Position numbers and translations under genes: made by a program. A DNA stretch of 1,075 nt from Naegleria gruberi (taxonomy: Eukaryota). Below are positions 1-1,075 of the stretch, one piece after another. The DNA lies in assembly GCA_000004985.1 (NCBI GenBank), contig GG739577.1; one strand, given 5' to 3'. Each line of letters opens with the position of its first letter. Position 1 is the stretch's first letter. A model generated the notes under the pieces. That model did not search any database and was not told the DNA's origin. It saw nothing but the letters and a program-made list of their open reading frames with translations.

Positions 1-329
1 CATTGCTCCTAGCAGGGCTGCCGGCAGGTGCCAGCACCTCATGTTCGCCTGCGGTACCGACAGGCGCGCCGCTGGCCGCGGGTGCCAGCATTTCCTGCAC
101 GGTGAGCTTCACGCCCACCACGCAGGGCAGCCTGACAGCCACCGTGACGGCGGTCAGTGGAACCACGGACCCGGAGCCGGCCAACAATTCGCGTGACCAG
201 GAGTTGGTGGTTGCTGCCGCATTGACGCCGCAGCCGGTCCCCGCCACCGGGGTGCCTGCCCTGGTGCTGATGGGCCTTGCCGTCATGCTGGCCGGTATGG
301 GGATGCAGCGGCGCCGGGCACGGCGCTGA
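1..329 (+). CDS. 3' end of a larger ORF (5' end outside window): secreted/surface protein with a DUF11-type conserved repeat and a C-terminal IPTL-CTERM/PEP-CTERM-like sorting signal
   Basis: Frame 3..329 is open to the window edge with no upstream stop, and GC is high at third codon positions. Residues '...LPAGASTSCS...GASISCTVSFTPTTQGSLTATVTAVSGTTDPEPANNSRDQEL' (DPEPANNS at 168-191) resemble the DUF11 repeat with its terminal D-P-x-P-x-N-N motif. The last 30 aa (237-326), 'VPATGVPALVLMGLAVMLAGMGMQRRRARR', form a short motif, a hydrophobic TM helix and an Arg cluster. That is the layout of exosortase-type C-terminal sorting domains; the VPAL motif is closest to IPTL-CTERM, which commonly follows DUF11 repeats. 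Stop codon TGA at 327-329. Confidence 0.7.
   Translation, partial: LLLAGLPAGASTSCSPAVPTGAPLAAGASISCTVSFTPTTQGSLTATVTAVSGTTDPEPANNSRDQELVVAAALTPQPVPATGVPALVLMGLAVMLAGMGMQRRRARR
237..326 (+). other. C-terminal protein-sorting signal (motif, TM helix, RRRxRR) of the 5'-partial ORF
   Basis: Translation 'VPATGVPALVLMGLAVMLAGMGMQRRRARR*': a Pro-containing motif, about 18 hydrophobic residues, then the basic cluster QRRRARR immediately before the stop. Confidence 0.55.
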
Positions 330-382
330 ACATGGACGCGGCAGGCGCCCCGGCAGCGGGGCCGGCACCGCCCTGATGGAAT

Positions 383-410
383 GCCAGTCCGCGCGACTGG
401 CATTTTGCAT
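383..410 (+). terminator. Putative rho-independent terminator for the upstream DUF11/sorting-signal gene
   Basis: Inverted repeat gccagtc(383-389) / gactggc(395-401) with a 5-nt loop cgcgc, extendable by a C390-G394 pair. It is followed directly by aTTTTgcaTTT (402-412) on the plus strand, 54 nt after the stop at 329. On the minus strand no U-tract follows the hairpin, so it is oriented for plus-strand transcription. Confidence 0.5.
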
Positions 411-503
411 TTCGGGCCATCAGGTACCGACTGATGCATGCGGTCTGCGGCTCTCCGGCCTGGGCCTTTGGGGGCAAGGCAGCCGCAGTATCGGGCGGAT
501 GCC

Positions 504-509
504 TATAAT
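504..509 (+). promoter_or_regulatory. Candidate sigma70 -10 hexamer (TATAAT) for the fmdB-DUF502 transcript; no convincing -35
   Basis: Perfect TATAAT at 504-509, 39 nt upstream of the fmdB ATG, inside an AT-richer patch of an otherwise GC-rich spacer. Sequence 16-18 bp upstream (agccgc/gccgca) is a poor -35. TG at 500-501 is one base off an extended -10. A second TATAAG lies at 533-538. Confidence 0.4.
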
Positions 510-548
510 CGAAAGTTTTGCATCTTCTCTCGTATAAGCATTAGCGCC

Positions 549-866
549 ATGCCTATTTATGCATACAAGTGTGGCTCCTGCGGTCATGCCAAGGACGTGC
601 TGCGGAAAATCTCGGATGCTCCGCTGACGACCTGCCCGGCCTGTGGTGCCGAGGCCTTTTCCAAGCAGCTGACGGCTGCCGGCTTCCAGCTCAAGGGCTC
701 GGGCTGGTACGCGACCGACTTCAAGAACAGCGGCAGCAAGAGCGCCGCCACGCCGGCTCCAGCGGCCGACACCCAGGCCTCGGATACATCTGCCGCACCT
801 GCGGCAACTGCGCCTGCGCCTGCTGCGGCCCCCGCATCTGCTCCCGCACCCTCCACGGGCCATTAA
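549..866 (+). CDS. FmdB-family putative regulatory zinc-ribbon protein (CxxC...CxxC), 105 aa, with a low-complexity Ala/Pro-rich C-terminal tail
   Basis: ATG 549-551 to TAA 864-866. Translation 'MPIYAYKCGSCGHAKDVLRKISDAPLTTCPACGAEAFSKQLTAAGFQLKGSGWYATDFKNSG...' shows the canonical FmdB N-terminus (MPIY-Y-C-x2-CGH) and two CxxC pairs (CGSC, CPAC). The GSGWY motif is typical of betaproteobacterial members. The 438-start extension in the ORF track is rejected (see noticed_but_rejected). No strong Shine-Dalgarno upstream (uauaagcauuagcgccAUG). Confidence 0.9.
   Translation: MPIYAYKCGSCGHAKDVLRKISDAPLTTCPACGAEAFSKQLTAAGFQLKGSGWYATDFKNSGSKSAATPAPAADTQASDTSAAPAATAPAPAAAPASAPAPSTGH
736..863 (+). repeat. 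Low-complexity GCN/CCN codon tract encoding the Ala/Pro/Ser/Thr tail of the FmdB protein
   Basis: Encodes 'SAATPAPAADTQASDTSAAPAATAPAPAAAPASAPAPSTGH'. The DNA contains short tandem units (gcgcctgcgcctgc, gcatctgct) and more A/T-ending codons (gct, gca, cct, tct) than the rest of the window. Confidence 0.5.
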
Positions 867-884
867 TCAAGGCTTGCATTTCTC

Positions 885-1073
885 ATGTCCGCTCTGCGCA
901 AATGGCTGTTCGCCGGCCTGCTGGTGATTGTTCCTCTGGTGATCACGCTGGGCGTGCTCAACTGGATCATCGGCACGCTGGACCAGACGCTGGCCATCCT
1001 GCCCGAGGCCTGGCATCCGGACCGGCTGCTGGGTTTCACATTCCCGGCTTCGGCGTGGTGCTCACGCTGCTGA
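885..1073 (+). CDS. DUF502-family inner-membrane protein, 5' portion; zero-frame ORF stops at TGA 1071-1073 after 62 codons because of an apparent -1 frame change at 1031-1037 (pseudogene, sequencing indel or programmed frameshift)
   Basis: ATG 885, 18 nt after the fmdB stop. 'MSALRKWLFAGLLVIVPLVITLGVLNWIIGTLDQTLAILPEAWHPDRLLG' matches the conserved N-terminus and TM1 of DUF502 proteins (M-x2-LRK-x-F-x-GLLVL-PL-ITL-VL-W-x5-D). That family is normally about 200 aa or more. The expected continuation 'FHIPGFGVVLTLLI' (the family's G-F/H-IPG-x-G...LTLL motif) is open in the -1 frame from 1034 to the window end. Confidence 0.8.
   Translation: MSALRKWLFAGLLVIVPLVITLGVLNWIIGTLDQTLAILPEAWHPDRLLGFTFPASAWCSRC
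1031..1037 (+). other. G_GGT_TTC slippery heptamer (X_XXY_YYZ in the zero frame), the point where the DUF502 reading frame switches
   Basis: Zero-frame codons CTG(1029-1031) GGT(1032-1034) TTC(1035-1037). Reading GGG TTT and then CAC ATT CCC GGC TTC GGC GTG GTG CTC ACG CTG CTG ATC gives the conserved membrane-protein continuation. Confidence 0.5.
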
Positions 1074-1075
1074 TC

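Follow-up and report, generated by a model that had tools for sequence, protein, structure and literature searches.

Why does the DUF502 gene at the 3′ end of a 1,075-nucleotide stretch of DNA (the window) leave its reading frame beside a heptamer of the slippery X_XXY_YYZ form? The original prediction described a DUF502 gene broken by a 1-nt change of frame at about positions 1031-1038, with programmed -1 ribosomal frameshifting as its headline suggestion and a 1-nt deletion through sequencing or assembly error as its a priori favorite. The break itself was confirmed, and the coordinates of the open reading frame, the -1 frame, and the heptamer were all verified in the sequence (Table 1), the register of the heptamer being fixed by the codon phase from ATG 885. 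The zero-frame codons at the heptamer were CTG (1029-1031), GGT (1032-1034), and TTC (1035-1037). The weak GC/UUCG hairpin that had been described downstream was also present at 1047-1054, where the minimum-energy structure contained a tiny GC/UUCG/GC stem-loop of three pairs. We then examined the gene, the base responsible for the frame change, the evidence for recoding, and the two ends of the window.

Table 1. Positions of the features in the 1,075-nucleotide window.
Feature	Position	Strand	Details
3′ end of the 672-aa DUF7933/DUF11 surface-protein gene, with a frame break and an in-frame TAG	1..329	+	
Hairpin followed by a T-rich tract	375..411	+	Fold of 372-415: -18.6 kcal/mol, z -3.28
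Zn_ribbon_8 (FmdB-type) small protein gene, 105 aa, intact	549..866	+	Pfam PF09723, 61.5 bits
Zero-frame ORF, 62 codons	885..1073	+	ATG 885, TGA 1071-1073, peptide end ...LLGFTFPASAWCSRC
G_GGT_TTC heptamer (X_XXY_YYZ), zero-frame register	1031..1037	+	Phase set by ATG 885
DUF502 frame continued in the -1 frame	1034..1075	+	Reads FHIPGFGVVLTLLI, runs off the window edge
One C absent (TTC CAC in relatives, TTCAC in the window), actual cause of the frame change	1037..1038	+	blastn and MAFFT against L001, L002, and L083-L089

The locus was identified by using the 105-aa Zn_ribbon_8 protein as an anchor. The exact protein occurred in 50 collection blocks, and 24 contigs were read; the long contigs used for comparison were L001 (ENA, 533 kb) and L002 (NCBI GCA_041831475.1). 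Both showed the same gene order, consisting of a 672-aa DUF7933/DUF11 surface protein, Zn_ribbon_8, an intact 207-aa DUF502 gene, and aspS (aspartyl-tRNA synthetase). Scanning genomes for the 207-aa protein led to the Delftia lineage, where the protein of D. tsuruhatensis NBRC 16741 was 99% identical, and a relative of the protein was encoded at 582 loci of Comamonadaceae and their relatives. Judged from these sequence comparisons, the window is a Delftia locus very close to the strains represented by L001 and L002. In Comamonadaceae, the gene for the DUF502 integral membrane protein lies between the Zn_ribbon_8 gene and aspS. The same order was found here, and both the 51 N-terminal codons and the -1-frame continuation match the 207-aa Delftia protein identically, a 1-nt gap being the only difference.

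The assignment of the gene to DUF502 (PF04367) proved correct. The intact L001 allele scored 130.6 bits over residues 59-164, above the gathering score (cut-off 23.8). The peptides encoded by the window alone (62 aa, or 64 aa when repaired) gave no Pfam match, because the PF04367 domain begins at residue 59 and the window stops 6 residues into it. Codons 1-51 of the zero-frame ORF were the authentic DUF502 N-terminus, and its final 11 codons (TFPASAWCSRC) and TGA were generated by reading through out of frame. Apart from one missing C, the region of this ORF matched L001 10337-10489 exactly. It had been proposed to check whether the -1 frame stays open beyond position 1075; when the window was extended with the downstream L001 sequence, this frame remained open for 157 codons up to the normal DUF502 stop. 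The peptide spanning the trans-frame junction would read LLGFHIPGFGVVLTLLILLVVGAAASNFIGR.

The upstream part of the window contained several further features. In the L001 and L002 gene order, the first of them belongs to the surface-protein gene, whose C-terminus (window 240-329) was PVPATGVPALVLMGLAVMLAGMGMQRRRARR, in which a short motif rich in Pro precedes a hydrophobic helix and a tail rich in Arg; this C-terminus may be similar to PEP-CTERM- or IPTL-CTERM-type sorting signals. The strong hairpin that follows has the sequence AUGCCAGUC-cgcgc-GACUGGCAU, then UUUGCAUUU, and probably serves the surface-protein gene as its intrinsic terminator. An Rfam SorX match at 346-408 overlapped it below threshold (24.4 bits, E 0.0024; gathering score 46.6) and probably reflects the hairpin itself. 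Two indels relative to the window were each common to several contigs and are genuine strain polymorphisms: an in-frame indel of 6 nt within the GCTGCG/CCTGCG repeat region at 800-825, which encodes the Ala/Pro-rich tail of the Zn_ribbon_8 protein (L083, L084, and L087), and a 4-nt intergenic indel at about 360-362 (L083, L084, and L086).

Alignment with the near-identical relatives located the frame change at a single base. Where the relatives have GGGTTTCCACATT, the window has GGGTTTCACATT, and one C of a CC pair is absent; in codons, the relatives have CTG GGT TTC CAC ATT CCC (L G F H I P), as against CTGGGTTTCACATTCCC in the window. The earlier suggestion that a base had been lost from a homopolymer (GGG vs GGGG, or TTT vs TTTT) did not hold: the G and T runs were complete in the window, and the lost base was a C of the CC at 1037/1038. 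A search for an extra base in orthologues had also been suggested. The relatives did carry an additional C and used one frame throughout, an outcome that argues against a biological reading of the break.

According to the headline suggestion, ribosomes would slip by -1 on G_GGU_UUC, the P-site tRNA moving from GGU to GGG and the A-site tRNA from UUC to UUU, and full-length DUF502 would be the product of normal expression. The register of the heptamer is correct for such an event, and a -1 slip yields exactly the wild-type sequence LLGFHIPG. We compared the site across 80 species-level orthologous loci, in 79 of which it could be located. In all 79 orthologues, as well as in nine conspecific sequences, a single reading frame spanned the site without interruption for at least 187-204 codons, and a two-frame arrangement was found in none of them. 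Only 10 of the 79 orthologues had a heptamer at the homologous position (six GGGTTTT and four GGGTTTC), leaving 69 without one. The Gly codon was GGC in 49 orthologues, GGT in 16, GGA in nine, and GGG in five, its third base being free to vary, and the Phe that follows was replaced in 29 (F 50, V 10, M 8, Y 5, L 3, I 3). Even D. tsuruhatensis, the closest named species, had CTG GGC TTC at this site. The heptamer was thus not conserved beyond the amino-acid requirement among these orthologues, and programmed frameshifting at this position, which all the comparative tests contradict, is extremely improbable.

The near-identical strains were compared as well. Their intact alleles had G_GGT_TTC in frame, in the same register, and with the same flanks; the zero frame ran for 207 codons in these alleles, and a -1 slip at the heptamer would add a nonsense tail of 98 codons. 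Since the intact alleles hold the heptamer without needing a frameshift, it is therefore a pre-existing codon string and not a recoding signal. In-frame heptamers occurred at a rate of 0.003 per codon in the orthologous open frames, or about 0.6 per 207-codon gene. The importance that had been attached to the exact match between break point and heptamer was consequently not borne out, the heptamer being in frame and unused in every intact conspecific allele and missing from most orthologues. A more distant DUF502 gene (…PEQYRPDQLLGFHIPGFGVLMSLVV…) at L085 10791-10817 contained the exact intact 27-mer, including CTG GGT TTC CAC, and was locally in one frame.

Elements that could stimulate frameshifting were sought around the heptamer. 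With the window extended by L001, the 60 nt and 109 nt downstream, folded as pseudoknot-free secondary structures, were no more stable than dinucleotide shuffles (z scores of +0.26 and +0.37, respectively). No GGAGG-like sequence resembling a Shine-Dalgarno element was found upstream in 1010-1030. Synonymous entropy at residues 50-80 was 1.07 bits, equal to the gene average (gene-wide mean 1.05 bits), and there is therefore no conserved overlapping RNA element. All Rfam matches in the window, SorX and mir-221, were below threshold. The match to mir-221 at 998-1048 (23 bits, E 0.016; gathering score 46.6) overlapped the heptamer; it belongs to a eukaryotic miRNA family and was regarded as a chance match. 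Transcriptional slippage was rejected, as runs of three G and three T would be far too short for it.

Known bacterial -1 sites give two products, or a fusion, that are conserved across species, and the stimulators of the IS911 and IS3 sites are a Shine-Dalgarno element and a stem-loop or pseudoknot. The present locus resembles dnaX (A_AAA_AAG) and IS911/IS3 (A_AAA_AAG) in having an in-register X_XXY_YYZ heptamer at a frame junction. In contrast to these systems, it has no detected stimulator, no conservation of the heptamer, no two-frame overlap in relatives, and a motif that shifts weakly in bacteria. Sharma et al. (2014; PMC4066793) assayed the full set of 64 heptamers in E. coli. GGGUUUC on its own, with no stimulator, gave 0.029% frameshifting, compared with a no-motif background of 0.055 ± 0.031%; the value was 0.288% when the IS911 stimulators were present and 1.7% when the strong IS3 pseudoknot was (PMC4066793, Table S3). 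The headline suggestion of programmed frameshifting is accordingly unsupported at this locus.

The same geometry would permit another route to a functional protein. Were the deletion genuine, ribosomes slipping by -1 on the neighboring heptamer, spontaneously and without programming, could restore a trace of protein with exactly the wild-type sequence, and translational "correction" of indels is an idea discussed in the recoding literature (PMC5009743). Such leaky rescue would be a small natural case in which a fresh indel is "corrected" by a pre-existing, unprogrammed heptamer. However, it presupposes a real deletion, and the efficiency expected from the E. coli measurements is that of the background, which would make rescue negligible. 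We consider this explanation highly improbable.

We next compared the whole window with the related sequences. In blastn, window 2-1075 matched L001 and L002 with 1070/1076 identities, and positions 79-1036 were 100% identical. The sole differences were located at 1-2, 9-11, 44-45, and 78 and at 1037, where the C is missing. The other Delftia sequences were concordant at every one of these positions, and the window stood alone in a comparison set of eight to ten Delftia sequences with 89-99% identity (L001, L002, L003, and L083-L089). The private differences were confined to the first 78 nt from the 5′ end and the last 39 nt before the 3′ end, with an error-free interior. The chance that four independent clusters of differences would all fall in the terminal 78 + 39 of 1075 nt was about 1.4e-4.

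The 5′ differences included a second frame break. At window 1-12, the relatives have C/AATTGCTCCATCGCAGG and the window has CATTGCTCCTAGCAGG, with one or two bases fewer and a substitution; in the authentic frame, the upstream surface-protein gene reads CAT TGC TCC TAG, with the TAG at 10-12, and the remainder of the gene lies in another frame. Because the 5′ differences also break the surface-protein gene, there are two gene-breaking lesions within 1 kb whose remaining sequence is that of known strains. The differences at 44-45 and 78 were private substitutions. A paralogous surface-protein repeat was considered as the source of the 5′ differences and rejected, as the secondary blastn-short matches were only 84-89% identical over 36-65 nt. 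The C-terminal surface-protein fragment that results from the frame shift was not on record in an exact look-up. Another contig end also showed a discrepancy: metagenome contig L089 1-15, corresponding to window 933-947, lacked the CA of window 944-945 at 12-13 nt from its own end. This is probably an independent contig-end error, an artefact of the same kind.

These comparisons also bear on whether a Delftia strain or subpopulation has truly lost the C, so that DUF502 is cut to a 62-aa peptide and the gene is a recent pseudogene. The deletion is present in the sequence as given, and single-base deletions do occur at short runs like GGGTTTCC. Against such a private mutation, the gene was intact in every orthologue with a located site and in all nine conspecific sequences. 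The deletion allele was also absent from the collections searched: its 26-mer had 0 matches in 185,579 species genomes and 241 million metagenome records, and the intact 27-mer was found in seven metagenome contigs. An exact look-up of the 62-aa product likewise returned no record. The string for screening Delftia assemblies at the deletion site is TTTCACATTCC. Finally, the deletion was accompanied by the other private, gene-breaking differences at the window ends, a pattern that suits technical error. A genuine mutation is therefore unlikely, though it deserves more weight than either form of ribosomal slippage.

The explanation that we favor, with a probability of roughly 0.85 assigned from sequence comparison, is that the frame break stems from an error of base calling or assembly, made where the quality of a short record was poor at its 3′ end; this agrees with the a priori favorite of the original prediction. 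One C would have been dropped from the CC pair near the 3′ end of the record. This record may be a short contig (with a de Bruijn tip at the contig end) or a single long read with two poor ends. We infer that the window begins and stops at low-quality ends of the record, and that sequencing, not an event in the cell, gave rise to the change. As with end-of-read and end-of-contig indels in draft and metagenomic assemblies, a private 1-base indel was found among private end differences, and the gene was intact in close relatives. The variant was private to one record, the close relatives agreed on the alternative state, and other private differences co-occurred at the record termini, all of which are marks of an artefact. 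One counterpoint is that such errors classically occur in long homopolymers and not at a CC dinucleotide; compared with a typical end-of-record indel, the base lost here, as known from sequence comparison, lies in a 2-nt run.

A second point concerns the position of the loss. The only in-frame heptamer of the gene lies directly 5′ of the lost base, a coincidence of about 1% if deletions were random in the gene. This is offset by the fact that the window was selected for that very coincidence. Under the error explanation, G_GGT_TTC would be the codon choice of the lineage for Leu-Gly-Phe (CTG GGT TTC) and would adjoin the lost base by chance. The organism would keep an ordinary, uninterrupted 207-codon DUF502 gene in a single frame, and recoding would play no part in its expression. 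The biological importance of the break is slight. The case serves as a caution, as a frame break beside a textbook X_XXY_YYZ heptamer resembles recoding.
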